DNA of 64,000 nucleotides from positions 27,183 to 91,182 of the forward strand of contig QKDN01000046.1 of assembly GCA_003252535.1 (NCBI GenBank), given 5' to 3'. Of the stretch, positions 6,173 to 38,560 are shown in pieces; within the stretch, counting starts at the first letter, position 1; each line of letters opens with the position of its first letter. Source of the stretch: Campylobacterota bacterium. GTDB lineage: Bacteria; Campylobacterota; Campylobacteria; Campylobacterales; Sulfurovaceae. The position numbers were made by a program, and so were the translations under genes. Under the pieces are notes generated by a model. The model did not search any database. It was not told the DNA's origin and saw only the letters and a program-made list of their open reading frames with translations.

Positions 6173-6177
6173 TCATA

Positions 6178-7260: not shown

Positions 7261-7940
7261 AGTTCCTCCTCACCTTTGAGCTTCTCGAGCGCTACCTTGG
7301 CCGCTTTCTGCTGGGCATCCTTCTTGCTCTTCCCCTGGCCTGCGGCGATCGTCTCGCCGTTCAGCGTGATGGCTACTTCGAACTCTTTCTGGTGGTCGGG
7401 GCCGAACGAGCGGATCAGCTCGTAGGTGGGGGTGACACCGTGGGTAGCCTGGGTAAGCTCCTGGAGAGCTGTCTTGAAGTCCCTTGAGAGGGACTGGAGG
7501 TCGATCTTCTTGTGGGTTTCGTTGAGGAGGCCGATCACGATCTTTTTGACCGTCTCGAGTCCCCCTTCGAGGTAGATGGCTCCCATGACCGCTTCGAATG
7601 CATTGGAGAGGAGGGAGGATTTGTTGCGGCCGTTGTTGTTCTCTTCGGCCGGGGAGAGGTAGATATACTGTCCCAGACCGATCCGCTTGGCTATCATGGT
7701 GAAACCGTTCTCGTTGACCAGTGAGGCGCGGGTCTTGGAGAGGACCCCTTCGTTGGACTCGGGGAACTTCTCGAAGAGATACTCCCCTACGATGAGATCG
7801 AGCACAGCGTCGCCGAGGAACTCTAGGCGCTCGTTGTTGTAGGGTTTTTTGTAGCTCTTGTGGGTGAGAGCCTCAATGATGAGCTCTTTGTTCCTGAAAC
7901 TGTAACCGAGTCTCTTTTCAAGTTCATGAAAGTCGTTCAT
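7257..7940 (-). CDS. rnc: ribonuclease III
   Basis: 227 aa, [13 protein letters not shown] RNase III signature plus C-terminal dsRBD. Confidence 0.92.
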
Positions 7941-7951
7941 TGGTCTTTTCC

Positions 7952-8395
7952 TTAGAGTTTTTCTTTGATCTTAGCCGCTTCTTCACGGGCGAGGCGGTCG
8001 CATATCTCGTTCTCTTCGTGTCCGTTGTGTCCCCTGACCCACTCGGCGCTGACACGGTGGGGTGCGGATACTTGGAGGTACTCCTGCCAGAGATCGACGT
8101 TCTTGACCTTGGCGAAGTGTTTGCGTACCCATCCCTCCAGCCATTCGTTGATCGCTTTGACGACATAGGAGCTGTCGGAGACGATATGGACGGCGCAGGG
8201 CTCTTTGAGCATCTTCATCCCCTCGATGACGGCGCGGAGCTCCATGCGGTTGTTGGTGGTGTGGTCCTCGCCGCCGCTGAACTCCTTGCGGTTCCCTTTG
8301 TACTCGAGTATTCCGCCGTAGCCGCCTGGACCTGGATTGCCGAGACTCGAGCCGTCACAATAGAGAGTAATCTGTTTGAGCGCTCTGTTTGACAA
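7952..8395 (-). CDS. rnhA: ribonuclease HI
   Basis: 147 aa, [17 protein letters not shown] ... RNase H fold motifs. Confidence 0.9.
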
Positions 8396-9401
8396 TCTCT
8401 TCCTCCACTTCTATACGGTTTATCGCCAGACAATGAGGGCAGCGTACGAACGATATGGGGAAGTTCTGTTTGCATTTCTTGCACAGGTAACCAAATGACA
8501 GGTCCCCCTCCTCATATCCGCTCATCCTGCTTGAAAGCAGCATATCCACGGCAAAAATACCGCACGGCTGCGGCGCTCTTTGGCGTAGATATCCCCTGGC
8601 ATAGTAGACTGCCTGAAGCTGTTCATTGTTCGATATTATATCCAAATCGAGTTGTGCATAAGGCAAGTACCACAAAATATCGAGTATCTCGCGCAGTCTT
8701 TGGGTGTCGACCAGCTCCCATGCCTTGCGGGTGTCGAGCCTGAAAAGATGGGTGAGGATTGGGCGGTAGAGCGAGCTGTCCTCTTCGAGCAGCCGCTCAA
8801 GGGCGGCGATCTTCTGGGCTCCGGCCGTTTTCTTTTCCGAGGCGATCATCTCGAAGCGGAGGAAGCGTTCGAGGGCAGCGGTATCCTCTCCCATCGTTTT
8901 GAGCGGCTCGATCGTCTCAAGCGCTTTTTTGTACTCCTTGGTCATCTCGTAGATCACCCCCAGCCTGTAGAGCAGCTTGACATCGCGTGGGTGCTGGCGG
9001 AGTATCTCCAGATAGATCACCCGCGCGCGTTCGAGAAATCCTGCGTGCATATAGGTCTGGGCAAGATGCTTGAGCAGGTCGGTATTGTCGATAGGGTTGG
9101 TGGCGTGTTTGATGAGGTAGAGATAGATGTTGATTGCCTTGTGGTACTGGCCGCTGTTCTCGAATGCATTGGCCAGCAGGGTGAGCGGACGGAGCATCGC
9201 TTCTTCAAAAGGCATATTCGAGGTATCGAGGAGACATTCGCTGTTGTCGAACTTCTCAAGGAACCTGTGGAGGACGCTCTTCTCTTTTTGTTGTTTGTAA
9301 AGACCCCATACGAAGGTCATGATGGCGATGATGAGACTGAGCACCACGATGATAAGGATACTGAAAAGGGGGTCGCGGTATGAGGGGAGTATACTGTCCA
9401 C
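8355..9401 (-). CDS. TPR-repeat membrane-anchored protein with C-terminal CxxC...CxxC zinc ribbon (LapB/YciM-like)
   Basis: 348 aa, N-terminal TM, TPR-like helical repeats, C-terminal CKKCKQ...CPHC rubredoxin-like motif as in LapB. Confidence 0.5.
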   Translation of the reverse strand: MDSILPSYRDPLFSILIIVVLSLIIAIMTFVWGLYKQQKEKSVLHRFLEKFDNSECLLDTSNMPFEEAMLRPLTLLANAFENSGQYHKAINIYLYLIKHATNPIDNTDLLKHLAQTYMHAGFLERARVIYLEILRQHPRDVKLLYRLGVIYEMTKEYKKALETIEPLKTMGEDTAALERFLRFEMIASEKKTAGAQKIAALERLLEEDSSLYRPILTHLFRLDTRKAWELVDTQRLREILDILWYLPYAQLDLDIISNNEQLQAVYYARGYLRQRAPQPCGIFAVDMLLSSRMSGYEEGDLSFGYLCKKCKQNFPISFVRCPHCLAINRIEVEEEIVKQSAQTDYSLL

Positions 9402-14602: not shown

Positions 14603-17212
14603 CTAGTTCCGGGTGAAAAGCGAGAACGGCTGCGGGTAGAGATCGATAGCCAGCTGGCCGCTGCTGTTGTATCCCCATGCCCAGAGGGAACCGTCGCTCT
14701 TGATGGCGAGGGTGTGTTGGTACCCGGCATATACGCCGATCCAGTCGGTGTCGTTGCCTATCTGTACCGGGGAGTGACGCTCACTCTTCGTACCGTCGCC
14801 AAGCTGTCCGTAGTTATTACGACCCCATGCCCAGAGAGTGCCGTTATTCTTGATAGCTACGGTGTGGAATTGACCTCCTGAAGTAGCATTCCAGTCGGTA
14901 CCGATGCCAACCTGCACAGGCTCATTGCGACTGATGTTCGTATCATCGCCGAGCTGGCCGTAGTCGTTATTTCCCCATGTCCAGAGAGTACCGTTCTTTT
15001 TGAGCGCGATGACATGATCGGAACCTGATGATACACTGAGCCAACCAGAGCCTAAACCGGTATCTTTGGGTATCAGACTGTCAGAGTATGTCCCATCACC
15101 AAACTGTCCTTCGCTATTGTCCCCCCATGCATAGATAAACTGCTCCCAGACAGCAATAGAGTGGGCGCGTCCTGTCGCAACACTGTCCCAGATGACATGA
15201 GTTCCGTTTTGAACCGGGATATTGCTGTCGGTTGTAGAGTTATTGCCCAGCTGACCGTAATGGTTGTATCCCCACGCACGGGCAAAACCGTTGAGGGTAT
15301 GTGAATCCCCTGCAGCAATATCTTTCACCAAAAGGCCTGTATCATCGATAAATACCGGAGCCGTACGGTCTGTATTAGAGCCGTCGCCGACCTGGCCGTA
15401 CCAGTTGTCTCCCCATGCCCATATCTCATTAGTGCTTTTGCAGGCGACATTATGATACTTCCCTGCTGCGATACTAACCCATGTATCATCGCTTCCGACC
15501 TGAACAGGGTGATAATGCTGCGTCTTGCTTCCATCGCCGAGTTGTCCGTTGCTATTGTACCCCCATGCCCACAGTGTACCGTCATTCCTGATGGCAAGCG
15601 TATGGCTGCTCCCACCGTCTGCGCGCAGCCACTCGCTTTTTGTAAATTCCTGCTTCGGTGAGAGGCTGCCTATGGGGAGACTGTTGCCCAGCTGTCCGTA
15701 ATTGCTGTAACCCCATACGACAAGCGTACCGTTGCGTTTGACCGATATTGTATGGGAGATTCCCGAAGCGAGCGTGCTCCAGTCGTTCGCGCTCCCCACC
15801 TGTACGGGTGAGTTGTGATCGGTCATACTCTCATCGCCGAGCTGTCCGTAATTATTGTGACCCCACGCCCAGAGGGTAGCATTGGTTTTGACGGCAAATG
15901 TATGGTAGGAGCCGACGGCGAAATCACTCCAGTCGGTATCGACGCCGATCTGAACCGGGGTATCGCGATCGGTCGTCGAAGTATCCCCGATCTGTCCGTA
16001 TTCGTTAGATCCCCATCCCCAGAGAGAGCTGCCGCTTTTGATCGCAATGGTATGGCTCGCTCCTGCACTCACCGTGCGCCAGTCGGTATCGGCGCCCACC
16101 TGGACGGGGGCATTACGGCTGGTAGTGGAGCTGTCACCGAGCTGACCGTAGAAGTTGTATCCCCAAGCCCAGAGAGAACCGTCAGTTTTGATCGCGAGAG
16201 AATGGAAATCCCCCGCCGTAGCGCTGCGCCAGTCGCTTGCACTGCCTACTTGTACAGGAGCATTATGGTTGGTATTCGTCCCGTCGCCAAGCTGACCGTA
16301 AAAGTTGTATCCCCAGGCCCAGAGAGTACCGTCTGCCCTGAGCGCGACAGAGAAGGAGTACCCTCCGTCGACACTGCGCCAGTCGTTTGCCGTGCCGATC
16401 TGGACAGGGGTGGTGCGGTTGATATCGGTGCCGTCACCCAGCTGCCCTTTGTCGTTGAGCCCCCATGCCCAGAGAGTACCGCCTGTCTTGACCGCCAGCG
16501 TATGATATGCCCCGGTCGATACGCTGCGCCAGTCGCTCGCTGTCCCCACCTGCATAGGTGTAGAATTGCTTGTTCGTGTCCCGTCGCCGAGTTGTCCGTA
16601 ATTGTTGTATCCCCATGTCCAGAGTGTACCGTCACTCTTGACCGCAGCAGTGTGGTAGTTTCCTGCGGCGATATGCTTCCAGTAGAGGGAGTGGATCGAG
16701 ACAGAGATATCGACCGTGGCTACACCGTCGGAGATCGTGAAAGTACAGATGTCGGTGGCATTGGTCTCGACAATCTTGTGGTAGCTGACCGTATCGCCCG
16801 TGACGCTGCATGTACCGTAGCTTCCGTTGGTCTTGAGGGCGATGGTGAGGGTGTCGCCGTCATCGTCGCTCGCTGCCGATCCTATCTTCCAGTTGCTTGT
16901 TACCGTCGATTCGTTGACATCGAGTGACATGGAATAGCCGGTTGCAGTCGGCACAGCATTGGCGGGTGTGGGCGAAGTATCGTCGGTGACATCCTGCGCC
17001 GGCTCATCCGGAAGGGTCGTATTGGCTTCATCCCCGGAGGATACGTCGGTGGCAGAGGTGTTGGTATCCGTGATCAAGGGATCCGATATGATCGTGTTGG
17101 TGGTATTGTTGGTATCGGTAGTATCCACCGAACTACCGCCCCCGCCACAGCCGGTCATCAAAGCTATCGTCATACTCAGCAGCAGACGGCGCCAAAGATT
17201 CGTTGTTTGCAT
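14603..17212 (-). CDS. RCC1-repeat (beta-propeller) lipoprotein with Thr/Asp-rich linker and Ig-like domain
   Basis: 869 aa; lipobox LMTGC; about 13 tandem approx 50-aa repeats WAWGxNxYGQLGDGT typical of RCC1/ATS1 family; GC-rich. Confidence 0.8.
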   Translation of the reverse strand: MQTTNLWRRLLLSMTIALMTGCGGGGSSVDTTDTNNTTNTIISDPLITDTNTSATDVSSGDEANTTLPDEPAQDVTDDTSPTPANAVPTATGYSMSLDVNESTVTSNWKIGSAASDDDGDTLTIALKTNGSYGTCSVTGDTVSYHKIVETNATDICTFTISDGVATVDISVSIHSLYWKHIAAGNYHTAAVKSDGTLWTWGYNNYGQLGDGTRTSNSTPMQVGTASDWRSVSTGAYHTLAVKTGGTLWAWGLNDKGQLGDGTDINRTTPVQIGTANDWRSVDGGYSFSVALRADGTLWAWGYNFYGQLGDGTNTNHNAPVQVGSASDWRSATAGDFHSLAIKTDGSLWAWGYNFYGQLGDSSTTSRNAPVQVGADTDWRTVSAGASHTIAIKSGSSLWGWGSNEYGQIGDTSTTDRDTPVQIGVDTDWSDFAVGSYHTFAVKTNATLWAWGHNNYGQLGDESMTDHNSPVQVGSANDWSTLASGISHTISVKRNGTLVVWGYSNYGQLGNSLPIGSLSPKQEFTKSEWLRADGGSSHTLAIRNDGTLWAWGYNSNGQLGDGSKTQHYHPVQVGSDDTWVSIAAGKYHNVACKSTNEIWAWGDNWYGQVGDGSNTDRTAPVFIDDTGLLVKDIAAGDSHTLNGFARAWGYNHYGQLGNNSTTDSNIPVQNGTHVIWDSVATGRAHSIAVWEQFIYAWGDNSEGQFGDGTYSDSLIPKDTGLGSGWLSVSSGSDHVIALKKNGTLWTWGNNDYGQLGDDTNISRNEPVQVGIGTDWNATSGGQFHTVAIKNNGTLWAWGRNNYGQLGDGTKSERHSPVQIGNDTDWIGVYAGYQHTLAIKSDGSLWAWGYNSSGQLAIDLYPQPFSLFTRN

Positions 17213-17350: not shown

Positions 17351-18646
17351 TTAAAAGGAAAATCTACAATCTGCTTTGTAGACACCGTTGATAGCTCGAT
17401 ATTGGCCAGTGCTTGTCGGATATACCCTATGGGCAAACCCATGGGGGGTGGCAACAATATCTACGTGAGTGCAGGCATCGTAAGTTGGTTGGGTGACTAT
17501 GGACATCGCAGGTGTCTTCCGCATAGGTCTTGAGAAACTCATATTTGTGGTCAATTGTGCAAACCCTCCCGCAAGTCCGTACAGGAAGCCATATCCTTTT
17601 CCATGTGCGTATCCCTGCCAAACATAGGTGGTAATCTCTTCTAATGCTTCTGAATATGTTTTGACAATGGGTGAAACATACCTATCCGTGAGAGTCAATG
17701 CAAAGTCGGTCATATAGATGGTATCGTTGGAAGAGGCTGTAGAGATTGTGATATAAAACCCATTTTCAAAATTTTCATAGTCATTTGAATCGAGTGTGAT
17801 TGTCAAAAGACCATCAGCACTTATAGTGGCTGTCGTAAAATACCGAGTTGTTGTAGAGGGGTTGTCTACAGCACCAAATGTACTGATGGAGAGAGTGGCA
17901 CTTGCAATAGAACCCCTTTGGAATAAGGTAGAAACGGTAAATTTCTTTCCTTTGAATTTTTTAGCAATATCACTGTCAAAGAACTGCCTGATCGAAGATG
18001 ACGTAGCTGTAGTGTGTGTGATCACAATGGCATTTTTGTCGGTCCCCGGGAATGTCCCTTTTGTGGCAGTTGAACCACTGTTCCCCGTCACAAAATATAC
18101 ATCGGCGACATATTTCGTACTGTTGTCAGCGGTCCAGGTAGTATTCCCTTCCTGCCATACATCCATATGCGGATTGAGTGCATAATTGAATGTATGAATA
18201 TTTTGTTCAATATATGTTACCAGTGTTGAGATATATGTTTGTGTGTATGCCATCGCTATCCAGTCATCTACACCAGCAGCCGGTGGATTGGATGAACCTG
18301 AGTGCGTATACCATAGGATATCAGCGGCCAGCACGACCGTCTCCGGTGCTACAGTACCGCTCCCCGTATAGTTGGGATCGTAGCTGCCGTTTGCCAGCGC
18401 CTGGACTATAGCCGTACTCGACACGACCTCAGCGTGCTTGGTATCGATATCCGCACTTGCAGCATTGATACCGGTGATGACCGCTTGCAGCTTTGAGATG
18501 AATGCGGTGATCTCCGGCAGGATGGTCGTTTTCCAGTAGCTCAGCCAGCCGCTTGCTTTGGAGTTGAATGTCGTTTTCCCCTCGGCGATGAGCGGCACAT
18601 CAGGGGCATCGGTAAATTCATGATCTATTTGGTCTATTTGTGGCAT
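17351..18646 (-). CDS. phage tail fibre / receptor-binding protein, paralog 1
   Basis: Start taken at MPQIDQIDHEF (RBS AAGGAG upstream); first about 100 aa identical to next gene, C-terminus divergent, Ser/Thr-rich. Confidence 0.6.
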   Translation of the reverse strand: MPQIDQIDHEFTDAPDVPLIAEGKTTFNSKASGWLSYWKTTILPEITAFISKLQAVITGINAASADIDTKHAEVVSSTAIVQALANGSYDPNYTGSGTVAPETVVLAADILWYTHSGSSNPPAAGVDDWIAMAYTQTYISTLVTYIEQNIHTFNYALNPHMDVWQEGNTTWTADNSTKYVADVYFVTGNSGSTATKGTFPGTDKNAIVITHTTATSSSIRQFFDSDIAKKFKGKKFTVSTLFQRGSIASATLSISTFGAVDNPSTTTRYFTTATISADGLLTITLDSNDYENFENGFYITISTASSNDTIYMTDFALTLTDRYVSPIVKTYSEALEEITTYVWQGYAHGKGYGFLYGLAGGFAQLTTNMSFSRPMRKTPAMSIVTQPTYDACTHVDIVATPHGFAHRVYPTSTGQYRAINGVYKADCRFSF

Positions 18647-18690
18647 TTTTTTCTCCTTAGTATGATTGGATGAAGCTCTCTCGAAGAGGC
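18393..18690. repeat. direct repeat copy A (5' end of tail fibre gene plus about 40 bp upstream), about 90% identical to 19711..20010
   Basis: Direct nucleotide comparison of the two regions in this window. Confidence 0.85.
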
Positions 18691-18797
18691 ATTTGATACA
18701 CCTCTTCAAATGAAGTGTAGTTTCTGAGCCAAGAAATGACTCGAACTCAATATCTTGAAACTCTCAGTTCGCAACGATAAGTTGTGTCATTCTCATG

Positions 18798-19964
18798 CTA
18801 CACTGCGGTGATAGTGCATTGGCGATCAGAACCAATGCCGGGATGTGGTTGACTGTAGTTAGCGATTGCCATAGTAATAGTCAAGGTCGTACTCTCTCCT
18901 GAGGAAAGTGCGGATGTATCAATGGTAGTCGATGTAGTAGTATCACCAACACCAATCGTGACATAACCGTCTCCTCCATCGAAGATAATATAAGATTCAC
19001 CCAGTGATGGCGCATGACCCAATGCTAATGATACATCAACAGATTGTGTCCCTGCCGGTATCTGTATATCCGTTACAGGGAAGTACGCTTCGTAGGGCAT
19101 ATATTCGTCTCCTACTTCAACTGTGATATTGAAGTCGACATCGATGAGGTTCGTTGCTACTACCGGCTTAAAAAAGGTGTACACTTTGGCACTATCGACG
19201 AAGATGAACTGGTTTATCAGTTTTGCCGTATCCACTGATGAGAACGGTGCTGACATTGAGGTGGCTGGGCCGACAGTACCAACAGATTTTTCTGTATATT
19301 TGATATGACCGAATACACCGAGGTCGTGAGCAATCTTTAATATGTCGAGATTCGCATAGTACACAGTTCCGGCGACGAGATTCTGACTGTACGTGACAGA
19401 AAAGCTCCCCGTGATCTGGCAAAATGTACCCTGTCTGATAAGTCTCAAATCTACTTTATGTAGGTACTTTTCGGTTCCGGAAGGGGCTGATATGTCGAGA
19501 ATATCACTATTGCCATATTCTATAAGATAGCTCTCCGAATAGAATCTTGCTTCTCTCATGACGGGTGACACCATGATCCAGTCCACGCTTGATATGTTGG
19601 GCACATCTTCCGTACCGTTCGGCGTGTACCATATCGCGTCGTTGTATGATACTGTCGTATTCGCTGCCACGGTGCCGCTTCCTACATAGTTCGGCATGTA
19701 AGTACCATTCGCCAGCGCCTGGACTATAGCCGTACTCGACACGACCTCAGCGTGCTTGGTATCGATATCCGCGCTGGCTGCATTGATACCGGTGATGACA
19801 TCGCGCAGTTTCGAGATGAATGCGGTGATCTCCGGCAGGATGATTGTCTTCCAGTAGGTCAGCCAGCCGCTTGCTTTGGAGTTGAATGTCGTTTTTCCCT
19901 CGGCGATGAGCGGCACATCAGGGGCATCGGTAAATTCATGGTCTATTTGGTCTATTTGTGGCAT
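18798..19964 (-). CDS. phage tail fibre / receptor-binding protein, paralog 2
   Basis: Start at MPQIDQIDHEF; N-terminal about 100 aa identical to paralog 1; distinct C-terminal domain. Confidence 0.6.
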   Translation of the reverse strand: MPQIDQIDHEFTDAPDVPLIAEGKTTFNSKASGWLTYWKTIILPEITAFISKLRDVITGINAASADIDTKHAEVVSSTAIVQALANGTYMPNYVGSGTVAANTTVSYNDAIWYTPNGTEDVPNISSVDWIMVSPVMREARFYSESYLIEYGNSDILDISAPSGTEKYLHKVDLRLIRQGTFCQITGSFSVTYSQNLVAGTVYYANLDILKIAHDLGVFGHIKYTEKSVGTVGPATSMSAPFSSVDTAKLINQFIFVDSAKVYTFFKPVVATNLIDVDFNITVEVGDEYMPYEAYFPVTDIQIPAGTQSVDVSLALGHAPSLGESYIIFDGGDGYVTIGVGDTTTSTTIDTSALSSGESTTLTITMAIANYSQPHPGIGSDRQCTITAV

Positions 19965-20010
19965 TGCTGCTTCTCCTTCTAGTTTTGTTGTATGAAGCTC
20001 TCTATATCGA
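19711..20010. repeat. direct repeat copy B (see 18393..18690)
   Basis: Direct comparison; same orientation as copy A. Confidence 0.85.
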
Positions 20011-20905
20011 GTGAGCACTGCGACATCGAAGCGTTCTCATAGACCTGCACCATGGAGGTGTAGTATCCGAATTGTAAGAACGCCTCCACGCCGTCCATCA
20101 GTCTGAACATCGTCGCCTTGTTCGAGAGGCTGTCGAGCTTCTTTTTGGCAGCATCGAAGCTGTCCGAGGCAAGCTTGATATCGCAGCTGATAAGGTTGGC
20201 AAGGTCGCCTTTGACGAGCTGCACCTTCCCGAATGCATTCTTCTCCGGTTGCCGCGGATTCACCTGGGTGACCGATGCGCCAAACTGCGTACATCCGATC
20301 CCCTCTGTCCTCCCGGCGACGATAAATGCAAGCTCGGCAGTCGCAGTATCAGGCGTATGTATGATGATCTCTACTTTTTGTGAGAAATCTATAGTAAGCG
20401 GATGCGCTATGTTGGCACGAATGTCGCTGGGTACATCATATAAAAACCAATCATACAGATTGTCCGGCCCGCCATCATCGATGATGTCGTAAGTCGTATC
20501 GGCTATTATATCGCCCGTATCGTTGCGCTCAATCACCTGTACAGAGGCGCCCAGCACCCCCATGATCGCCAGCATATTGCACTTGTTACATGAGAATATC
20601 ACATGGAGATCTCCCACACAGGAACATACTGCCGTGGTCTCGCCGTGCTCGCTCATGATCTGATTGTAGGCGGTCAGCATAGCTTTAGAATTTACAGGCT
20701 GCTGTGGATACCACTTCGCAGACACGTTCGGTAGCTCAGTATCTGCTGTCGTGGTATCCTCGGTACACAGGTAGATATAGTCGTTGTATATCCTGTACTC
20801 ACCGGCTGCCACTACAGCGCCAGATACCCAGTCCGGGTATGTCTCGTCTATGGCATTGGTTTCCAGCTGCTCTATAGCCCTTGGTTCTACTACCTCAAAT
20901 TCCAT
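19979..20905 (-). CDS. phage tail structural protein, putative distal tail protein (Dit-like)
   Basis: 308 aa, located between tape measure and fibres as Dit is in siphovirus tail modules; no motif confirmation. Confidence 0.4.
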   Translation of the reverse strand: MEFEVVEPRAIEQLETNAIDETYPDWVSGAVVAAGEYRIYNDYIYLCTEDTTTADTELPNVSAKWYPQQPVNSKAMLTAYNQIMSEHGETTAVCSCVGDLHVIFSCNKCNMLAIMGVLGASVQVIERNDTGDIIADTTYDIIDDGGPDNLYDWFLYDVPSDIRANIAHPLTIDFSQKVEIIIHTPDTATAELAFIVAGRTEGIGCTQFGASVTQVNPRQPEKNAFGKVQLVKGDLANLISCDIKLASDSFDAAKKKLDSLSNKATMFRLMDGVEAFLQFGYYTSMVQVYENASMSQCSLDIESFIQQN

Positions 20906-20906
20906 C

Positions 20907-23900
20907 TTATGCCCTCGCCTTCACTTCGGTATAGAAGTTGTTCTTTTTTGTAGTCTTGAGCGTCTCTGCCGAGATCGCGTTCATCTCTTTGATCGTCTTT
21001 ATCAGCTCCATATTTTGCGACACCATAGAGCTCATCGACTTCTGCATATCCTGAAAGCTTCGCGTAGATACACGATCGACAGCAGTTGCCAGCTGCGGCG
21101 CCAACAGTCCGAATGACTGCTTGATATCCTGGGAGCCGGAGACGGATGCTTTTGCCGCTGTACTTGCAAGCTGCTGGGCAGTAGACGCAGATGATCTGCG
21201 CGTCCCGGTAGAGGCATTTGCAACCGTGCTCGCCAGTAGAGCCGCTGATTCAGTAATATATTTTTTGTCAGACTCTGATATTTTTTTCCCGGTGTTGGGC
21301 TGGGTGCCACCGCCCTCCCTGGCGATCAGTGCATCTATCATTTTGATCGCCGATGCGTTCACACTCTCGTCGATCTTGAGCAGCGTGGCGTCTATATTCT
21401 CGAGCAGCGCCTGCTCGGGAGGTGTTGCTATCCCCTGTATGTCAGCATTGGCTTTGGTGATCATAGAGATGAATTCCGCTTCGTTCCTAGCCGAGCTCTG
21501 CGCCTTTTCTGCAAAGTTCTGATAGGCGCCGGATACCCCTGCATAGTCACCGTTGTTGATCGCTTGCGACAGGAGTGTTTGGGACTGCGCCACCGTCCCG
21601 ATCGTGTACGAGCGCAGCGTCTCCATAGATGACTCTTTGGCCGAGAGTATGGATTCGCGCAGTGCGTTCGAGGCCTCTATCTCGGCGTTGATCCCGTCGA
21701 TCCTGGTCTGCTCTAGCTCTTTGAGCCTGTCCTTTTCTGCATTCGCCCAGGTATCTATCTGGGAGAGAACATCTTCTGATGCGACGCCCGATCTGATATT
21801 CTTCTGGATACCCGATGCAGTGATTTTGGCCGGCGTCGTATAGGCTGCCTTCGCATCGAGCAGCGTCTGCATAGCCGCCGCCCTCTCGTCTGCGAGCTGT
21901 TGCTCGTTGTCCATGAGCTGCTGCTGCATATCATAGAGTTCTGCGAACTGCGGAGAGAGTTCAAGGAGCTTGTCCTTGAGGGTCTCACCTGTCTTGCCGG
22001 TGAAGCTGAGCGAATCTACCAGATTTTTGAATTCTTCTTTTGTCTGTGGCATAGTGAGCCCAAGTGCATTCATGCTGTTCTGCAAATCTCCGGCAAGCAT
22101 GGAGGCCTGCTCCTCCGTGGAGTAGAAGCTACCTATAAAGCTATCAAGTGCTGCTTGTCTCGTGTCGTTGAGCTGCTGCTCCATATCATAGAGTTCTACG
22201 AACTGCGGAGAGAGTTCAAGGAGCTTGTCCTTGAGGGTCTCTCCCGCTGCTCCGCTGAGACCGAGCGAGTCTGCCAGTTTATTGAATTCTTCTTTCGTCT
22301 TTGGTGTCATCGTGTCTGCGTTTCCACTGAAGCTGAGCGAATCTACCAGATTTTTGAATTCTTCTTTTGTCTGTGGCATAGTGAGCCCAAGTGCATTCAT
22401 GCTGTTTTGCAAATCTCCGGCAAGCATGGAGGCCTGCTCCTCCGTGGAGTAGAAGCTGGAGATGTAGCTGTCCAATGCTGATTGCCTCTTATCCGCGAGC
22501 TGCTGCTCCATGTCGATCATCTTGGCATACTCCGGGGAGAGTGCTATGAGTTCGCCATAGAGCTTGGCACTCTCCTCGTCCGTTACTTTGAATCCCTGGA
22601 TCAGATCGGCAAAACCTTCGGCTGTGTCGGGGAGCTTGATACCAAGAGTCTTGGCCGAGCTTTCCAGGTTGTTTTTGACGATGTTGTACTGTTCCTGGTC
22701 CGAGAGGAAGTTTTGCTGGAATGACTGCATGGCAGACGAGAATGCATCCTGACCACCGGCAGCTTCTACCACATCGAGGGTGGCCTCCTGCGCAGAATAT
22801 ATCTTGCCCCATCCTTTGCCGAAGCTTGCCATTGATGATGCCATTTGTACAGCCATAGAGGAAGCAGCATCCATATCCCCGTTCTGAATAGCTGCTGACA
22901 TGCTCTTAGCCATAGTAGACATGGAGTTGCCGGTCTTATGTGACTTGACTATATTGTCGCCTATGATGACGCCGATATCCTCCAGCTGTGCTGAAGACTG
23001 CTCGTATGTGACCGCCAGACGCCCAAGCGTCTCCAGACCATCCTCCCCTGCCTTGCCGTATTTATCTACCCAGCGGTCGATTTCACCTACGCCGCCAAGT
23101 ACCCCAGAGAAATACTCGCTATACGCCGCCTCTATACGTTTTGATGCCTCTTCTGGCGACAACCCCTCAAGGTCTATCTTGCCGATCTCGACCTCGACCT
23201 TCTTGAGCGCATCTTCGTATTGACCGAGCCCGAGCGTCCCGATCGCCTCGAAGATGAAATCATAACCCTCCTGGAACGCCTCTGTGAAATATGACTGCTG
23301 TTCAGCAGTGAGGTCGATGACGGTATCTTTTGTGTACTGCTTCGTCGACAGCCCGAAATATTTTTTCTTCGTGATGATCTCTGTCGTATACCCCTGTACT
23401 ACGCCATCCATGAAGGTATCGTAGCTTGAAGCCCCCATGATCACTCCGGTGCTGAGCATCTCCCGGGAAGTCGAGCTCCAGATGCCTCCTGATTGCGACG
23501 GCTTGTAGTCAGCCCCCGTCAGGTCGACCCCTGCCGATCCGGCTACGGAAATGGCTTTCCCTATGAGAACGAAGTTCTTGTCCATTGAGGCGAGATACTT
23601 CGTCATCTGGTAGGTAGATTCGAGCAGCGGGTCCTGTGCACTCTCGAATATCCCTTTCAGATTTGCCAGTGACTCGTCTGAGAAGTCCGTGCGCCCTTTG
23701 GCTGCTTCTTTTTCTGCATCGGTGAGGGTATCGGTGAGGGATGACGACAGAAATGAAAGTCCTACCCCGATGGCCATTGCAAAGACATTACCGCTCATCC
23801 CCCCCAGGCTATTGAGCCCGGAGCTTAAGGTGGATGCAAGCGACTCCGAGAGGTTGTTGACTATCGGTTTGACGAGCTCTGAGGAGACTCCATCGACAAA

Positions 23901-25859
23901 ACCTTTGAACGCACCGGAGAAGTCCCCTTTGAAAACACCCCCCAGCAGCCCTTTGAACTCGTCGGTGAAGTCGAGTGCGCCGCCATGGTGTTTCTTCCAC
24001 ATTGCGTCATTGGCTTTAGCGACATCTTCAGCGGTCATTTTCCCGGCAGCCCTGAGCTTCTCGAATTCTTTCTTCGCCTCTGCTGCGTCAAGCTCGAAGA
24101 GTTTTTCCTTCTGTCCTGTCAGCTCCAGGAATTTGCGGTAGGATGATTCCAGGTCTTTGGTGGATGAGGCTGCATTCTTCACGCCTGATGCGTGTTCTTT
24201 TGCCGCATTGACCCCTTTTTTCCCGCTTTCATCAGCCTTTTTCCCCATATCTTCGGTCGCTTTTGACAGCTCTTTGGTAGATGCGGTTTCTTTGGCAGTT
24301 TCCTTTGTTACCTTGCCTGTACCCGAAGCAATCTTTTTCCATGTATCTGCTATCGCATCTGCTGTGGTAGCCTGAGTCTTGTATGCTTCGTTAAGTGATG
24401 CATTTGTGCTTCCCGTATCGATGAGCTTTTTGGTAGATTTCGTTGCAGCTTCGATAGATGATTCGTACGAGCCTATAGATATAACGATAGGCTTGAATGG
24501 GTTTTCCTTTCCCGCTAACGCAAATACATTGTCAAAACCAGAAGAAAACGAATTGATAAACTCCGATACAACCCTGAGCAATCCATTGATCATAGCATAG
24601 AAACCCTCGCCGATAGCATCTACTACAAACTTGAAAGTGTTCTGCATAGATACAGTCAGAGAGTTCCATCCATCGCCTATTACATTGATTCCATCTTCAA
24701 TACCCAGTACTACTTCGTAGAAGCCAACGCGCAAGGTTGCTCCCATGTTCAGGAATCCAAGCCCGGCAAGCTGTGCAGTAGAACCGACATGAACCCCTAG
24801 TGCTGCTATGAGATCAAGAACCCCATTGACCTCGTCTTTGATTTGCAGAAAGTCCAGTGCGCCACCCAAGGCATCACTGATACCTTCACCCACGACAACT
24901 ATTGCTTGAGGAAGATATGAAAAAGTGTCGTATATATCCCCGGCCATCGTGACGAAAGTACCGGTTACGGATTGTCCGATACTGGCTGCTTCTGGTCCGA
25001 GGTCATTGAGTATGCGGGTGAGCTCTTTCGCCCCATCTTTCTGCGCGTCGAATATCGGCTGTGTGATCTTCCCGGCGAACATATCCCATGTCGTGCTGAG
25101 GTTGGACATGGCGTAGGCGTATGTATCCTGCTCGGTACCGGTCTCGCTGAGTTTCTCTTTGAGGAACGCTACTTTGTCCCCGGCGGCAGCGTAGGATTCT
25201 TTGGTGACGCCAAGTGTCTGCATCATCTTGCCGAAACCGCTGTTGGCATCCCATGTGCCGTCCGCCATATCGTTGATCCCGGCTGAGAGATCATCGGTCG
25301 AGAGGTTCAGGTTGGATGCGCTGTTGGTGACGAGCTTGAGTATATCCGCCTGATCCTTGAGCGCCCAGTTGTTGCGCTCCATCCCCGGTTTGGCGAGGGC
25401 ATAGATATCGACGAGCTCGCTCATCCCCCTGCCGGTCTTTGTGCTGGTCTTCTCGAGGAGTGACATCATCGCCGCCACTTCGCCGGATACGAGCTTCTGC
25501 CGCTCCATCGCCGTGACCTGTTGCCCTGTTGTGAGCGTCAACCCTTTGGATGCCAATACGATCGCTGTCAACTTTGCCTTGCTAGCGTCCATGGTCTTGT
25601 TGTATTCAAGACCGCTATGCATGACAAAATCGAATGCCTGTTTGAGCGATATGATCTTTCCGACACTCGAGCCCAGATCGCTGATGGTGTTTTTGATACG
25701 GCCGATGGCAGAGGATGTCTGCGCAGCCTCGGTTTTGAGACTGTCGAACTGTGTCAAGACGACACTTATATCCCCTGTCCTGGCATCGACCGAGAGGACG
25801 ATCTCAAGATTCTGTTGCATTTGCCTGTACCCCCCGCTCGATGGTTTTGATATTTTCAA
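20907..25859 (-). CDS. phage tail length tape measure protein
   Basis: 1650 aa, largely alpha-helical/low complexity, internal tandem repeats (MPQTKEEFKNLVDSLSF...LKDKLLELSPQF.ELYDM), directly downstream of G/GT chaperone pair; possible alternative start at MQQNLEIV (25820). Confidence 0.85.
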   Translation of the reverse strand: MKISKPSSGGYRQMQQNLEIVLSVDARTGDISVVLTQFDSLKTEAAQTSSAIGRIKNTISDLGSSVGKIISLKQAFDFVMHSGLEYNKTMDASKAKLTAIVLASKGLTLTTGQQVTAMERQKLVSGEVAAMMSLLEKTSTKTGRGMSELVDIYALAKPGMERNNWALKDQADILKLVTNSASNLNLSTDDLSAGINDMADGTWDANSGFGKMMQTLGVTKESYAAAGDKVAFLKEKLSETGTEQDTYAYAMSNLSTTWDMFAGKITQPIFDAQKDGAKELTRILNDLGPEAASIGQSVTGTFVTMAGDIYDTFSYLPQAIVVVGEGISDALGGALDFLQIKDEVNGVLDLIAALGVHVGSTAQLAGLGFLNMGATLRVGFYEVVLGIEDGINVIGDGWNSLTVSMQNTFKFVVDAIGEGFYAMINGLLRVVSEFINSFSSGFDNVFALAGKENPFKPIVISIGSYESSIEAATKSTKKLIDTGSTNASLNEAYKTQATTADAIADTWKKIASGTGKVTKETAKETASTKELSKATEDMGKKADESGKKGVNAAKEHASGVKNAASSTKDLESSYRKFLELTGQKEKLFELDAAEAKKEFEKLRAAGKMTAEDVAKANDAMWKKHHGGALDFTDEFKGLLGGVFKGDFSGAFKGFVDGVSSELVKPIVNNLSESLASTLSSGLNSLGGMSGNVFAMAIGVGLSFLSSSLTDTLTDAEKEAAKGRTDFSDESLANLKGIFESAQDPLLESTYQMTKYLASMDKNFVLIGKAISVAGSAGVDLTGADYKPSQSGGIWSSTSREMLSTGVIMGASSYDTFMDGVVQGYTTEIITKKKYFGLSTKQYTKDTVIDLTAEQQSYFTEAFQEGYDFIFEAIGTLGLGQYEDALKKVEVEIGKIDLEGLSPEEASKRIEAAYSEYFSGVLGGVGEIDRWVDKYGKAGEDGLETLGRLAVTYEQSSAQLEDIGVIIGDNIVKSHKTGNSMSTMAKSMSAAIQNGDMDAASSMAVQMASSMASFGKGWGKIYSAQEATLDVVEAAGGQDAFSSAMQSFQQNFLSDQEQYNIVKNNLESSAKTLGIKLPDTAEGFADLIQGFKVTDEESAKLYGELIALSPEYAKMIDMEQQLADKRQSALDSYISSFYSTEEQASMLAGDLQNSMNALGLTMPQTKEEFKNLVDSLSFSGNADTMTPKTKEEFNKLADSLGLSGAAGETLKDKLLELSPQFVELYDMEQQLNDTRQAALDSFIGSFYSTEEQASMLAGDLQNSMNALGLTMPQTKEEFKNLVDSLSFTGKTGETLKDKLLELSPQFAELYDMQQQLMDNEQQLADERAAAMQTLLDAKAAYTTPAKITASGIQKNIRSGVASEDVLSQIDTWANAEKDRLKELEQTRIDGINAEIEASNALRESILSAKESSMETLRSYTIGTVAQSQTLLSQAINNGDYAGVSGAYQNFAEKAQSSARNEAEFISMITKANADIQGIATPPEQALLENIDATLLKIDESVNASAIKMIDALIAREGGGTQPNTGKKISESDKKYITESAALLASTVANASTGTRRSSASTAQQLASTAAKASVSGSQDIKQSFGLLAPQLATAVDRVSTRSFQDMQKSMSSMVSQNMELIKTIKEMNAISAETLKTTKKNNFYTEVKARA

Positions 25860-27615: not shown

Positions 27616-27750
27616 TTATTTCTCCTTCTCTTTTTGTGGTGTAGGTTTTTTGGTTGTCCAGCCTTTGGCGATCCAGACAGTTTCCTGGCTCTCTGGTATC
27701 GTAAGCGGCGCGCCGTTCTTTGCATAGATCGTAATCGTTCTTTCTGTCAT
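27616..27750 (-). CDS. small phage tail-module protein (44 aa)
   Basis: MTERTITIYAKNGAPLTIPESQETVWIAKGWTTKKPTPQKEKEK; stop 3 nt before major tail ATG; not in ORF track (<60 aa). Confidence 0.35.
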   Translation of the reverse strand: MTERTITIYAKNGAPLTIPESQETVWIAKGWTTKKPTPQKEKEK

Positions 27751-27758
27751 GCTCTCTC

Positions 27759-28097
27759 CTATCTGATATCTTTGTATGTCACATTGAGCGTACACAGCAG
27801 CAGCCCCGATTCGGTGATGCCCGGCTGTGTCGTATCGGTATTGGATATATCGTATCCGCTCATCGATGCTTCGTAGAGCTTCTCCTCTATATCGTCCACG
27901 GTTGCCTCGAGAGCGGTGAGCGAGAAGTCTGCGACGATTATCCCCAGATGCCTCTCCGTTACCCCGATCTCCAGTCTTTCCATCCCGCCATAGAGGAGGA
28001 ACACCCCGCTCTCATTGACTCCAGTGACATCTGCGTCATTGATCGTCATGGGGGCGAGAGCCTCTCTGAGGGCGGCTTTGCTCGATGCGATACTCAT
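27759..28097 (-). CDS. phage tail completion/terminator-like protein
   Basis: 112 aa, first gene of tail operon next to divergent late-promoter region. Confidence 0.4.
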   Translation of the reverse strand: MSIASSKAALREALAPMTINDADVTGVNESGVFLLYGGMERLEIGVTERHLGIIVADFSLTALEATVDDIEEKLYEASMSGYDISNTDTTQPGITESGLLLCTLNVTYKDIR

Positions 28098-28406
28098 CGG
28101 CAGAGAGCTCCGCCCATCCGTACGCTTTTTCCTGTCCTATGTCCGTCTTCCAATCACTCCTCCTTCAAGTCGTTGTAGAGTCGCAGTATAGCAGTGGGAG
28201 GCGCTCGGGGTCACTCCATATACATGGATATCGAGTGACTTTGCTCCCGGGCTTCTCCTATACTTCATCCGAAACTACACAGGCCGGGTGCCGGCATACG
28301 GCAGGCGGGATATCCCGATAGCAGATATCGGGCAGGCCGGCAGAGAGACCCGGAACGAAGCCCGCTCCGCGCTCCCGCCGACTCCGGCAAGTACAGGACA
28401 AACACA

Positions 28407-28574
28407 ATGAAGATCAAAGAAGAGATCACCGCGATCATGCTCCGTGCAAAGAGTTTCGAGGAGGCGTTCGCCCTCCTTGCCGATGCCTGTCCCGATATGG
28501 ATATGGAAGCGCTTGAAGAGGCGTTCATGGGAGTGATGGAGAACGGGGAGCTGACGGGGACGGAAAGCAGCTGA
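28407..28574 (+). CDS. small acidic hypothetical protein (55 aa)
   Basis: MKIKEEITAIMLRAKSFEEAFALLADACPDMDMEALEEAFMGVMENGELTGTESS; first ORF of rightward late/lysis transcription unit; not in track. Confidence 0.3.
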   Translation: MKIKEEITAIMLRAKSFEEAFALLADACPDMDMEALEEAFMGVMENGELTGTESS

Positions 28575-28663
28575 GTGGAAGAGTGTATGCGGCGTGTGCC
28601 GTTTGGATGATTACGGGCGATTTAACGCCTGTTTAACGCATAGTATATATATGGAGGTGACTG

Positions 28664-29008
28664 ATGTTTGATATATTCGGTAAAGCAAGTGTGTGGATCA
28701 ACGAATCGCAGGTCATGGTCGCGGTGATATTCGGGGCGTTCGTGCAGTTCTTCTTCGGCAAGACGAAGAACGCGAAGGTCGCCGTCACCGTGGTGGTGAG
28801 CTCGATATTCGTCGCGCTCTATATCGTCCCGCCCATCGTGGAGCTCCTCAGGATAGCCAGTGACGGCTCGTGGGCGATCACCCTCTATGCCCTCTCCTCC
28901 GTGGTATCGATAGAGATACTTTCTATGGTGATAGCGATCCTGCCGCTCGCCATGAGGGAACGGGTGGAGGAGTATCTCCAGATCATGGAACATAAGGAGC
29001 CGAAATGA
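28664..29008 (+). CDS. holin-like membrane protein (3 TM)
   Basis: 114 aa, three hydrophobic helices, charged C-terminus, immediately upstream of spanin pair; opposite-strand ORF 28622..28993 is an antisense artefact. Confidence 0.5.
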   Translation: MFDIFGKASVWINESQVMVAVIFGAFVQFFFGKTKNAKVAVTVVVSSIFVALYIVPPIVELLRIASDGSWAITLYALSSVVSIEILSMVIAILPLAMRERVEEYLQIMEHKEPK

Positions 29009-29094
29009 GGATCAGAACAGTCCATTACCCCTACGCGATCATCCTGATAGCGGCAGCGGTACTCATCATCTCTCTGATCGGAGCTGCAAGATGA
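29005..29094 (+). CDS. small single-TM protein (29 aa), possible antiholin/lysis accessory
   Basis: MRIRTVHYPYAIILIAAAVLIISLIGAAR; ATGA overlap with holin stop and with downstream start. Confidence 0.25.
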   Translation: MRIRTVHYPYAIILIAAAVLIISLIGAAR

Positions 29095-29402
29095 TACCGG
29101 GATTTGTCGGCAGATACTGGCCGCTGCTCGTCGCCCTCTCGGGGGTGCTGTATCTGTATCATACGATCGACTCGCTCGGGACGCAGCTGGGAGCGTGTCG
29201 TGCAGAGCTCACGAGGATCGACGCCGTAGCCGCAGAGCAGAAGCGCCGGTACGAGGTCTCTGTGAGGAATTATGAGGATGCCATTATCAAAACGGCCAAT
29301 GCATACGAAGAGGATATCAGGAAGATAGAAGAGTTCAAAGGAGAAGCCAATGAGACGAGCTGTCAGAGCGCTGAGCGTATGTTTGACGGTTTCAGCTATT
29401 AG
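29091..29402 (+). CDS. inner-membrane spanin subunit (Rz-like i-spanin)
   Basis: 103 aa, N-terminal TM then coiled-coil periplasmic domain. Confidence 0.5.
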   Translation: MIPGFVGRYWPLLVALSGVLYLYHTIDSLGTQLGACRAELTRIDAVAAEQKRRYEVSVRNYEDAIIKTANAYEEDIRKIEEFKGEANETSCQSAERMFDGFSY

Positions 29403-29589
29403 CGGCTGCACGGGCACTGCACCGCTGCCGGCACCGCAGCCGTGCGTCACGCCGACGGTAGCCAGACCGGTGATGGACAACAGCCGCTGCGGCGATATCC
29501 TCTGCCGCTCGCGCCAGTGCCTGCACAACTACATCGCCATGCGCGCCTACGCCGAGCGTCTCGAAGCGGCGGCATCGGTATGCCGCTAA
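29350..29589 (+). CDS. outer-membrane lipoprotein spanin subunit (Rz1-like o-spanin), overlapping i-spanin in another frame
   Basis: 79 aa, lipobox AISGC, Pro-rich mature region (APLPAPQPCVTP), starts inside i-spanin gene. Confidence 0.55.
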   Translation: MRRAVRALSVCLTVSAISGCTGTAPLPAPQPCVTPTVARPVMDNSRCGDILCRSRQCLHNYIAMRAYAERLEAAASVCR

Positions 29590-29736
29590 GCCGCTGCGTT
29601 ACCCGCGGCAGACGCCCCGGAAATATGAGTCAAAAAAGATAAAGTTCAGAGAGATGAGGTGAAGCGGATGCGTCCAGACCTCTTTGGAGAAGATATAAAA
29701 AAGAAGATGGATACCCCCGCCGGGCGGCGGATCGGG

Positions 29737-29946
29737 TCATGCGTACTGTCTCTTGGGGGGCAGGTCGATATCCTTGTCCACCTCGACGCTGTGTCTGGCG
29801 TACTCCCTCCAGTAGTCGTCGAAACGGATCGCTTCGATGGTCTGGAATGTAGCGTCGCACTGCGTACACTTGCGGAACCTGTGGGTAGTGGGGCCGCGCA
29901 CCGTACCCACTACGCGGGTCGTCCCCTGACACTTTGGACAATCCAT
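29737..29946 (-). CDS. Ogr/Delta-type C4 zinc-finger late transcription activator
   Basis: 69 aa, CPKCQ...x22...CTQC spacing as in P2 Ogr. Confidence 0.55.
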   Translation of the reverse strand: MDCPKCQGTTRVVGTVRGPTTHRFRKCTQCDATFQTIEAIRFDDYWREYARHSVEVDKDIDLPPKRQYA

Positions 29947-29956
29947 CTCTGACCCC

Positions 29957-30355
29957 CTACAGTTTTTTGATCGCGATGATCACCGCGCTTGCCTGTATTT
30001 TACTCAGAATAGATAAACTTAACGGCATGACACCCACGACCCGTCTGACATAATGCATCAGAGCAGGCTGCGAACTCTCCCGCGCCCTCTCGAGCCACAG
30101 CTTCTCTATCGTCGCTATCTGCGCTCTGGTCGCCATCCCTTCGCGCTCACCCGATATCTCGGGCTCCATCCTGCCGTCCATCACGCCGAGCAGGTTCCTG
30201 AGCTCGTCGATGGAGAGTCTGCCGCTGCTTGCCACGCCGTAGTTTTCCATCAGGAATGCCTCCCACCCGTCGCTCTGTTTGGCGCTTTTGTACCACGGGT
30301 GGATGTGGATGCGCCGCAGCAGGTTCCTGCGGTATATCTGCTGTCCTTCTGTCAT
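29957..30355 (-). CDS. GemA-like (Mu gp16, DUF1018) regulatory protein
   Basis: 132 aa; YRRNLLRRIHI...SIDELRNLLGVMDG pattern matches the GemA family. Confidence 0.55.
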   Translation of the reverse strand: MTEGQQIYRRNLLRRIHIHPWYKSAKQSDGWEAFLMENYGVASSGRLSIDELRNLLGVMDGRMEPEISGEREGMATRAQIATIEKLWLERARESSQPALMHYVRRVVGVMPLSLSILSKIQASAVIIAIKKL

Positions 30356-38488: not shown

Positions 38489-38528
38489 TCCCTTTTGGCA
38501 ACGACACCCCTGTCACTGCCAAAAACGA

Positions 38529-38560
38529 TATTCGTCAATGTTCGCCAAATGTTCGCCAAT
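38529..38560. repeat. three tandem approx 11-bp repeats TATTCGTCAA / TGTTCGCCAAA / TGTTCGCCAAT
   Basis: Seen directly; similar CGCCAAA-core sites at 38511..38525 and 17297..17312. Confidence 0.6.

Follow-up and report, generated by a model that had tools for sequence, protein, structure and literature searches.

Two tandem tail genes of a head-less Mu-like prophage in a Campylobacterota bacterium as probable alternative fibres on a shared anchor module

Two adjacent genes, here called A and B, lie at the end of the tail module of a Mu-like prophage in a 64,000-nucleotide (nt) stretch of contig QKDN01000046.1 (positions 27,183 to 91,182 of the forward strand; assembly GCA_003252535.1) from a Campylobacterota bacterium of the Sulfurovaceae. 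We call this whole stretch the window, and all coordinates below are positions in it. The analysis indicates that A and B probably encode alternative receptor-binding tail fibres that have one attachment module in common, A being the resident fibre and B an additional one, and we assign this reading a probability of about 0.6. It is carried by the anatomy of the two genes, the recurrence of their common N-terminus in related phage loci, the membership of the B distal part in a tail-fibre family, and traces of a foreign origin directly upstream of B. The prophage lacks recognisable head genes, which bears on what the fibres do at present.

Results

The repeat shared by genes A and B

Both genes are encoded in tandem on the minus strand, and their products match database gene calls (P0001 for A and P0002 for B) with 100% identity and coverage. 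The genes and the repeated segments are as follows.

18798-19964, minus strand: gene A, 388 amino acids (aa), from the ATG giving MPQIDQ...
17351-18646, minus strand: gene B, 431 aa, from the ATG giving MPQIDQ...
19656-19955, minus strand: direct repeat D3, copy 1, at the 5' end of gene A; 300 nt, 89% identity
18338-18637, minus strand: direct repeat D3, copy 2, at the 5' end of gene B; spacing 1318 nt
19971-20003, minus strand: upstream duplicated tract, copy 1, with the last 7 codons and stop of the gene for a 308-aa protein (ESFIQQN, stop) and the ribosome-binding site (RBS) of gene A
18651-18681, minus strand: upstream duplicated tract, copy 2, including the RBS of gene B (AAGGAG, 7 nt before the ATG)

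The two proteins share 104 of 133 N-terminal residues (BLASTP E = 2e-68), and past residue 133 nothing can be aligned. Similarity is distributed unevenly along this part: codons 1-87 encode 83 identical residues of 87 (95%, with 93% identity at the nucleotide level), and codons 88-133 encode 21 of 46 (46%). Each protein can be divided into an anchor (residues 1-87), a neck (88-133) and a distal module that differs between the two. In the anchor the copies are separated by 13 synonymous and 5 non-synonymous differences, corresponding to a synonymous divergence (dS) of 0.25, a non-synonymous divergence (dN) of 0.025 and a dN/dS ratio of about 0.1; in the neck dS is saturated. The repeats contain identical runs of 62, 44 and 37 nt, and both copies are in the same reading register.

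Upstream of the start codons, a repeat search found a 24-nt match at 83% identity (18658-18681 versus 19980-20003), which local alignment lengthens to 33 nt (18651-18681 versus 19971-20003). The longer match scores 34; 500 shuffles gave 15.8 +/- 2.0, the highest being 25. For the C-terminal parts, a profile-profile comparison gave no homology (hhalign probability 0.5%, E = 0.12). The original prediction, made from the letters of the window, had described identical 5' ends in a direct repeat of about 300 bp, duplication of the 35 bp upstream together with the RBS, and unrelated C-termini. The length of the repeat, the upstream match of about 33 nt and the unrelated C-termini all hold; the word identical does not, as the copies agree at 89-93%.

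A falsely duplicated segment would have undone these observations, and beyond the general risk that repeats pose in draft assemblies nothing speaks for one. The D3 copies differ at 31 of 300 nt, mostly synonymously over codons 1-87, and they run into different intact open reading frames (ORFs). Short-read contigs from a second assembler (Logan, SRR7216773) agree with the window at 100% identity and stop at 19911 (nt 54 of A) and at 18422 (nt 225 of B). Both breakpoints fall within the longest stretches of identity of the two copies, which is the pattern that two copies present in the reads would give. Because the copies differ and the Logan contigs break in both of them, we take the repeat to be genuine and consider an assembly artefact extremely improbable.

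Distal modules of the two proteins

The distal part of B can be placed in a known family.

17366-18187, minus strand: distal module of B (residues 154-427), a jelly roll resembling carbohydrate-binding modules (CBM) of the CBM4/9 type, followed by a conserved C-terminal domain of about 100 aa

When B was the query of an exhaustive HMMER search, 104 proteins were returned, the A-like protein P0004 described below among them. The region corresponding to B residues 154-428 is always C-terminal in the matches, which range from 55 to 1219 aa, and 26 of 33 sequences (B and 32 hits) match phrog_4492, annotated as tail fiber protein. A family profile was built from 18 relatives, with B left out and p26 of Xanthomonas phage Xp10 not included. 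Against this profile B reached 147.7 bits, and Xp10 p26 reached 139.6 bits over residues 199-498. The profile also matched the CBM4 of laminarinase 16A (1gui; E = 1.4e-7) and, in GP13, the receptor-binding spike of vibriophage NO16, the N-terminal carbohydrate-binding beta-sandwich (9t9r; E = 9e-8). Xp10 p26 has been found in virions as a tail fibre, and host-range mutants of phage OP1 map in the homologous gene (PMC2248197). On these sequence grounds B, with its anchor, neck and Xp10-p26-like distal module (154-427), is a predicted tail fibre with a CBM-type distal module.

Gene A carries an orphan C-terminal part (residues 134-388) behind the same anchor and neck. This part has no match in Pfam, PHROG, the PDB or cultured phages, and A scores only about 0-5 bits against the B-family profile. 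Over its full length A is an orthologue of P0004 (392 aa; 43% identity), which likewise scores about 0-5 bits against that profile, and both proteins end in C(T/V)ITAV. P0004 is the single fibre-position gene of IMG/VR UViG_3300027985_000870, the closest relative of the element (loci L001, L003 and L008 in our comparisons). Because its sole detectable relative is this one orthologue, a receptor-binding role for A is assigned from position, together with the orthology. The proposal that the C-terminal two thirds of both proteins bind receptors is therefore borne out for B (tail-fibre family, 147.7 bits, phrog_4492 in 26 of 33 sequences) and is positional for A. Single-sequence AlphaFold2 models of A and B reached confidence scores (predicted local distance difference test, pLDDT) of 32.8 and 36.4 and are unusable.

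At the end of the presumed jelly roll, A reads VEVGDEYMPYE (278-292) and the B-family consensus reads QLEeGxxATpFE (B 312-326). The resemblance of these motifs is not significant (hhalign E = 0.12) and might hint at a common fold.

An anchor family encoded directly after a tail-tip gene

The tail genes immediately upstream of A are as follows.

19979-20905, minus strand: 308-aa tail-tip protein, phrog_6278 match (E = 9.6e-34), ending ...LDIESFIQQN, stop
20907-25859, minus strand: tape measure protein (TMP), 1650 aa, matching phrog_25966 and phrog_7740 (E = 8e-16)

The 308-aa tip protein is encoded by the sole gene between the TMP gene and the two fibre genes. The order TMP, tip protein, fibre is also found in loci L001, L007, L013 and L014. 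Homologues of the tip protein occupy the same position in L001 (47% identity), L014 (35%, E = 2e-33) and L007 (25%, 8e-15); in L013 the upstream gene is its positional equivalent only, the homology not being significant. The tip proteins of the relatives end in an IESF(I/V) motif, that of L014 in SIESFVKGNN. By sequence, the fibres of L001 (P0004), L014 (P0037) and L013 (P0029) match the anchor; for the 233-aa fibre of L007 the likeness of the anchor was judged by eye only.

The anchor is thus found in four other loci, each time encoded directly after the tip-protein gene or, in L013, after its positional equivalent. Elsewhere it heads three distal kinds, namely the A type (P0004), a LamG lectin (P0029) and a small beta domain (P0037, to which the L007 fibre is similar); gene B adds a fourth, the Xp10 type. 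The comparison with fibres of related elements that had been proposed as a check therefore finds the anchor recurring after the tip-protein gene and joined to other distal parts. Judged from these sequences, the shared N-terminus appears to behave as an exchangeable, movable anchor module that follows the tip-protein gene. Within the sequence available for L001, L007, L013 and L014, no second anchor-bearing gene follows the first.

The anchor family is previously undescribed. It has no Pfam or PHROG match, and the scans of A and B were empty even at E <= 10. Low-confidence models predict the anchor to be helical, with weak coiled-coil-like similarity, and residues 22-142 show a faint similarity to the trimeric coiled-coil needle gp26 of phage P22 (E = 0.03-0.04). 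A scan of viral contigs with the anchor returned one true relative (L001); a match in a metagenome-assembled genome of Telluria (L002) covers 14 residues and was rejected as spurious. There was no match to the anchor in metagenome contigs, and none to P0029 or P0037 in collection scans. Word-indexed searches with A, B and the 308-aa protein matched only the window's own proteins, and neither the region nor the 308-aa protein nor the two distal parts had a match in cultured phages by megablast and tblastn.

The tip protein (residues ~29-50, GAVVAAGEYRIYNDYIYLCTED) and the fibre necks (residues ~89-130, GSGTVAANTTVSYNDAIWYTPNG) have in common a Y/W-rich, hairpin-like motif (tblastn E = 0.15), which we take to resemble the CBM5/12-type motifs common in fibre proteins.

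Origin of gene B

The spacer between A and B retains part of a further gene.

18657-18746, minus strand: remnant, within the A-B spacer, of the 3' end of a further 308-aa-type gene (the relic); its frame reads ...NYTSFEEVYQMPLRESFIQSY, stop

The last 8 codons of the relic (ESFIQSY, stop) fall in the 33-nt duplicated tract, and the longer relic peptide aligns with YTSMVQVYENASMSQCSLDIESFIQ of the 308-aa protein, a score equalled by 4 of 1000 shuffles. The frame, NYTSFEEVYQ...MPLRESFIQSY and stop, reads as a diverged copy of a tip-protein C-terminus with a 21-nt deletion. Upstream of position -33 relative to the start codon of B, the relic is again strongly diverged.

The nearest neighbour of A changes along the gene, giving a mosaic pattern. 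In codons 1-87 it is B (83 of 87 residues identical, versus 35 of 87 with P0004), and in codons 88-133 it is P0004 (28 of 46, versus 21 of 46 between A and B and 18 of 46 between B and P0004). Base composition is mosaic as well. GC content at third codon positions (GC3) is 0.52-0.65 in codons 1-133 of the two genes and 0.61-0.67 in the TMP, 308-aa and major tail genes, and in the distal parts it is 0.43 (A) and 0.40 (B), so that the composition breaks at about codon 133. We infer that both distal modules differ in compositional origin from the tail backbone.

With regard to the original alternative of a duplicated or acquired cassette, B looks acquired rather than simply duplicated: the relic tip-gene codons and the older divergence on either side of the high-identity tract fit acquisition. 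In the scenario that we propose, B would be a cassette cut from the junction of tip gene and fibre gene in a related phage, keeping the last codons of that tip gene and the RBS. Later, gene conversion or recombination between A and B would have homogenised a tract of some 320 nt (-33 to about +290); alternatively, the tract could have been exchanged in an earlier phage recombination. If the tract was homogenised, B would as a consequence carry an anchor that fits the resident tail.

Expression, assembly and recombination

The ORFs of A and B are both intact and both have good RBSs, and on the minus strand of the interval between them there is no terminator-like or promoter-like site. On this basis A and B are probably co-transcribed with the late tail operon. 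The spacer contains one predicted structure.

18676-18714, minus strand: 13-bp hairpin within the A-B spacer that lacks a following U-tract (RNA fold of 18647-18800, z = -2.1)

This hairpin might attenuate or stabilise the transcript. It has no Rfam match, nor is any Rfam family found in 17.0-20.2 kb.

Since they have the same anchor, A and B should attach to the same tail-tip site, and because the anchor gene always follows a tip-protein gene, the 308-aa protein is the natural docking candidate. The anchor would dock the fibre on the tail tip, presumably via this protein, and a tail could then carry A, B or both. The repeats are direct, in the same register and contain long identical runs, so RecA-type recombination between them could delete the distal part of A in frame and leave one B-type gene. 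Such a deletion is a one-way change, and nothing points to a programmed switch. Both genes lie on the minus strand, and neither an invertase nor a reverse transcriptase nor a template repeat was found in the element, which agrees with the earlier statements that the direct repeats do not permit inversion and that neither enzyme is present.

The prophage

On the minus strand the tail module comprises, in order, genes for a 309-aa major tail protein (phrog_290), two chaperone-like ORFs of 181 and 84 aa, the TMP, the 308-aa tip protein, A and B. The TMP is syntenic with the 1597-aa TMP of L001. Further upstream are genes for GemA, Gam, a MuB-like ATPase, a Mu-type transposase, a Ner-like helix-turn-helix protein and a divergent repressor of the CI/LexA type. 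Mu-type matches include phrog_310 (transposase, 5.7e-78), phrog_296 (3.5e-35), phrog_491 (Gam, 2.5e-33), PF06252 (GemA, 5.8e-11) and phrog_4 (repressor, 6.5e-40). The transposase, MuB, Gam, GemA and repressor genes identify the element as a Mu-like transposable prophage, and its tail is of the siphovirus type. No tail ORF is interrupted, the TMP included, which fits either a recent deletion or selection. In the relative L001 the contig ends 110 nt after the fibre gene, and the similarity between its post-fibre sequence and the A-B spacer of the window spans only about 25 nt after the stop codon.

Further features of the element and its relative were recorded in passing. Within the TMP gene, 21908-22514 contains the internal direct repeats D6 and D8 (199 nt at 88% and 142 nt at 85%), which encode FYSTEEQASMLAGDLQNSMNALGLTMPQTKEEFKNLVDSLSF units, and Logan contigs also break there, at 21973 and 22428. 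Two Logan contigs, 100% identical to the window, meet at 27625-27651, just upstream of the major tail gene, although the window has no repeat that would account for a break at this place; a second related prophage, or a structural variant elsewhere in the same genome or sample, could be the cause. An ATPase gene (AAA_25/phrog_6357; 36648-37607, minus strand) lies between the repressor gene and the Ner-like gene, and its counterpart in L003 (997-1929) lies next to GemA, downstream of the early region, a further rearrangement that separates the two elements. The presumed left end (38489-38967) has a tandem 11-mer, TGTTCGCCAAA/TGTTCGCCAAT (38539-38559), which might be a transposase or repressor site; an inverted copy was not found at the candidate right ends. 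In L003, the large terminase and portal genes (5819-8502) are opposite in strand to the remaining structural genes, which is unusual.

Directly downstream of B is a gene for an 869-aa RCC1-repeat lipoprotein (14603-17212, minus strand), with a signal peptide and a promoter-like site of its own (17266-17239). In GC3 (0.63) it resembles the tail genes, and it could belong to the phage as cargo or to the host. Beyond this lipoprotein gene, leftwards from B, come genes for a GGDEF protein and then rplQ-rpoA-rpsD, and a resistance-nodulation-division (RND) efflux operon lies on the right-hand side of the repressor gene. The window contains no tRNA.

Discussion

Points against two working fibres

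Several observations weigh against A and B serving as alternative fibres of a working tail, and the most direct ones concern the element itself. The following lysis-type ORFs lie upstream of its tail module.

28664-29008, plus strand: holin-like ORF, weak phrog_2359 match (E = 3.6e-4)
29091-29402, plus strand: Rz-like ORF
29350-29589, plus strand: embedded Rz1-like lipoprotein ORF with the lipobox ISGC

Nowhere in the whole 64-kb window is there a terminase, portal, MuF, protease or capsid gene. The relative L003 encodes MuF, large terminase, portal, protease, major capsid protein and holin in about 11 kb between its GemA-like and major tail genes, where the window has 2.6 kb of small ORFs (27760-30364). 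With the head genes absent, the element cannot form infectious virions on its own. The idea that a second fibre broadens the target range, as had been put forward, is weakened by the lack of terminase, portal and capsid genes, and the present biological role of the fibres is uncertain because the element cannot build heads. The lysis-type ORFs (28664-29589) are opposite in strand to all other phage genes, and the minus-strand ORFs over the same interval look like non-coding junk, which suggests that an inversion of the lysis cassette accompanied the deletion of the head genes. Mu-type ends were sought with exact seeds, with the motif TGTTCGCCAA and by Smith-Waterman alignment of the left end against 4 candidate right ends, and all results were at shuffle level. 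The element may be inert, a relic that uses neither fibre.

Other points concern the fibres. The docking of the anchor to the 308-aa protein is read from synteny. All 4 of the other anchor loci are short or end near the fibre gene, so that tandem fibres are possible there too. The low dN/dS in the shared tract could mirror the history of that tract and not present selection on both copies. The distal part of A has its orthologue P0004 as its one known relative, with model pLDDT too low to help, and B is linked to Xp10 p26 through the profile, their pairwise similarity not being significant.

Alternative readings

The state of the element allows B to be read as a stranded leftover: two related Mu-like prophages would have lain side by side, or a co-infecting phage would have recombined illegitimately, and a deletion would then have joined the end of the first prophage, behind gene A, to the 3' end of the tip gene of the second. 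In favour of this are the relic of a second tip-protein gene directly upstream of B and the apparent end of the closest relative about 110 nt past its one fibre gene, which would put B where the ancestral right end is expected. The element has also lost its head genes, carries an inverted lysis cassette and shows no recognisable ends. However, B is intact over 431 codons and has a strong RBS, its anchor tract has a dN/dS of about 0.1, all tail ORFs are intact up to the 1650-codon TMP, and the high-identity tract is exactly the part that needs to fit the resident tail. We therefore judge this reading unlikely, while keeping it in view. A missing head can also be the mark of a tailocin; tailocins are encoded by clusters of tail and lysis genes that include no genes for heads or replication, and they are made as bactericidal particles. 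Like them, the element has a tail module, fibres and lysis-type genes and no head genes. Unlike them, it has retained the Mu-type genes for transposase, MuB, Gam and the repressor, the lysis genes run opposite to the tail operon, and the element is known from its genes alone. That it is a domesticated F-type-like tailocin derived from a transposable siphophage, with two fibres giving two killing specificities, seems to us quite doubtful; if true, the element would belong to a tailocin lineage with a new kind of origin, and two targets would be built into it. Phage tail-like bacteriocins are covered in bioRxiv 10.1101/2024.10.29.620980. Overall, a rearranged, decaying prophage is more likely than a tail-only derivative kept for another use.

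The assignment of A and B as fibres, and the use made of their repeats, can be questioned separately. With a single gene (308 aa) between the TMP gene and A, few for a siphovirus tip, and with an orphan distal part in A and structure models that are unusable, the two proteins could be other tail-tip parts, such as a hub, a Tal-like protein or tip-associated enzymes, that share an N-terminal assembly domain. But the distal module of B belongs to a family of virion tail fibres (Xp10 p26) and has a CBM-type jelly roll, the common N-terminus is predicted to be helical and not gp27-like, and relatives join the anchor to lectin-type (LamG) and other small distal domains, all of which makes a tip-part assignment rather improbable. 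The direct repeats, in turn, might act as a functional switch in which recombination deletes or amplifies the A cassette and the population flips between dual-fibre and B-only states. With 300 nt at 89-93% identity, a common register and identical runs of up to 62 nt (then 44 and 37 nt), a crossover would yield an in-frame chimeric B gene directly behind the tip-protein gene. Yet the element has no site-specific recombinase that we could find, the deletion would be irreversible, the divergence of 7-11% reduces homologous recombination, and the repeats have persisted long enough to reach a dS of 0.25; the breaks in the Logan assembly are what any repeat would give, so that read-level evidence points in neither direction. 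A switch of this kind is thus very unlikely. We continue to favour the reading in which A is the resident fibre and B an additional fibre acquired on the same anchor module.

Comparison with known systems

Switches by inversion of fibre-gene segments are known from the G segment of Mu (Gin), the C segment of P1 (Cin) and e14 (Pin), where inverted repeats, alternative distal parts in opposite orientation and a serine invertase lead to expression of one fibre form at a time and to two host specificities; for a Mu-type phage, the G segment is the nearest functional parallel. The locus described here is similar in its Mu-type setting, its constant N-terminus and its two alternative distal parts, whereas A and B are each complete, point the same way and carry direct repeats, and an invertase is absent. 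An invertase switch was rejected: no inverted repeat longer than 32 nt occurs in 15-23 kb, and by PHROG and Pfam the ORFs of 17.3-38.5 kb include no recombinase other than the Mu-type transposase. A diversity-generating retroelement of the BPP-1 Mtd type was rejected as well, no reverse transcriptase being found in the element and, in a sensitive blastn search of the distal parts against the whole window, no second copy.

A conserved N-terminal anchor with swappable distal domains (reviewed and tested in PMC10684548 and PMC12692247), and several receptor-binding proteins (RBPs) per phage (PMC11414711, PMC13352976), are well established. A and B resemble such modular RBPs in their conserved N-terminal attachment part, in distal parts that are unrelated beyond a sharp boundary, and in the presence of more than one RBP gene in a tail module; in A and B the boundary is also compositional. 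In branched dual-RBP systems (KP32, K1-5/SP6, CBA120 and Ackermannviridae), the second RBP docks on the first through a different N-terminal peptide or domain. A and B, by contrast, share nearly the same anchor (95%) and would use, or compete for, one site, and neither has a T4-gp10-like branching domain or any other Pfam domain.

Among individual relatives, Xp10 p26, which is also represented in the siphophages OP1 and Xop411, has N-terminal parts unrelated to those of B, and the host-range changes of OP1 involve domain duplications in the N-terminal 118 aa and not in the module shared with B. UViG_3300027985_000870 has the same order of major tail, chaperone, TMP, 308-aa-type and fibre genes, and differs in having one fibre gene, an anchor only 40% identical to those of A and B, and a full head module. 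GP13 is the trimeric vertex spike of NO16 and has been proposed to bind host carbohydrate (PDB 9t9r). With GP13, which belongs to a non-tailed phage, and with CBM4, only one domain is common, by way of the family profile and not of B alone, and the virion context differs.

The locus is thus a known theme, with an undescribed anchor family, an orphan distal module in A and an Xp10-type module in B placed in tandem, and it changes no concept. In the favoured reading it would be a natural example of a tail gaining a second RBP, in which a foreign cassette arrived with the end of its upstream gene and its attachment domain was homogenised with that of the resident fibre. The comparison also defines an unannotated anchor module, with a boundary near residue 133, that is always encoded after a member of the phrog_6278 tip-protein family or its positional equivalent. 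This definition could help to annotate the fibres of Mu-like siphophages and to design chimeric fibres.

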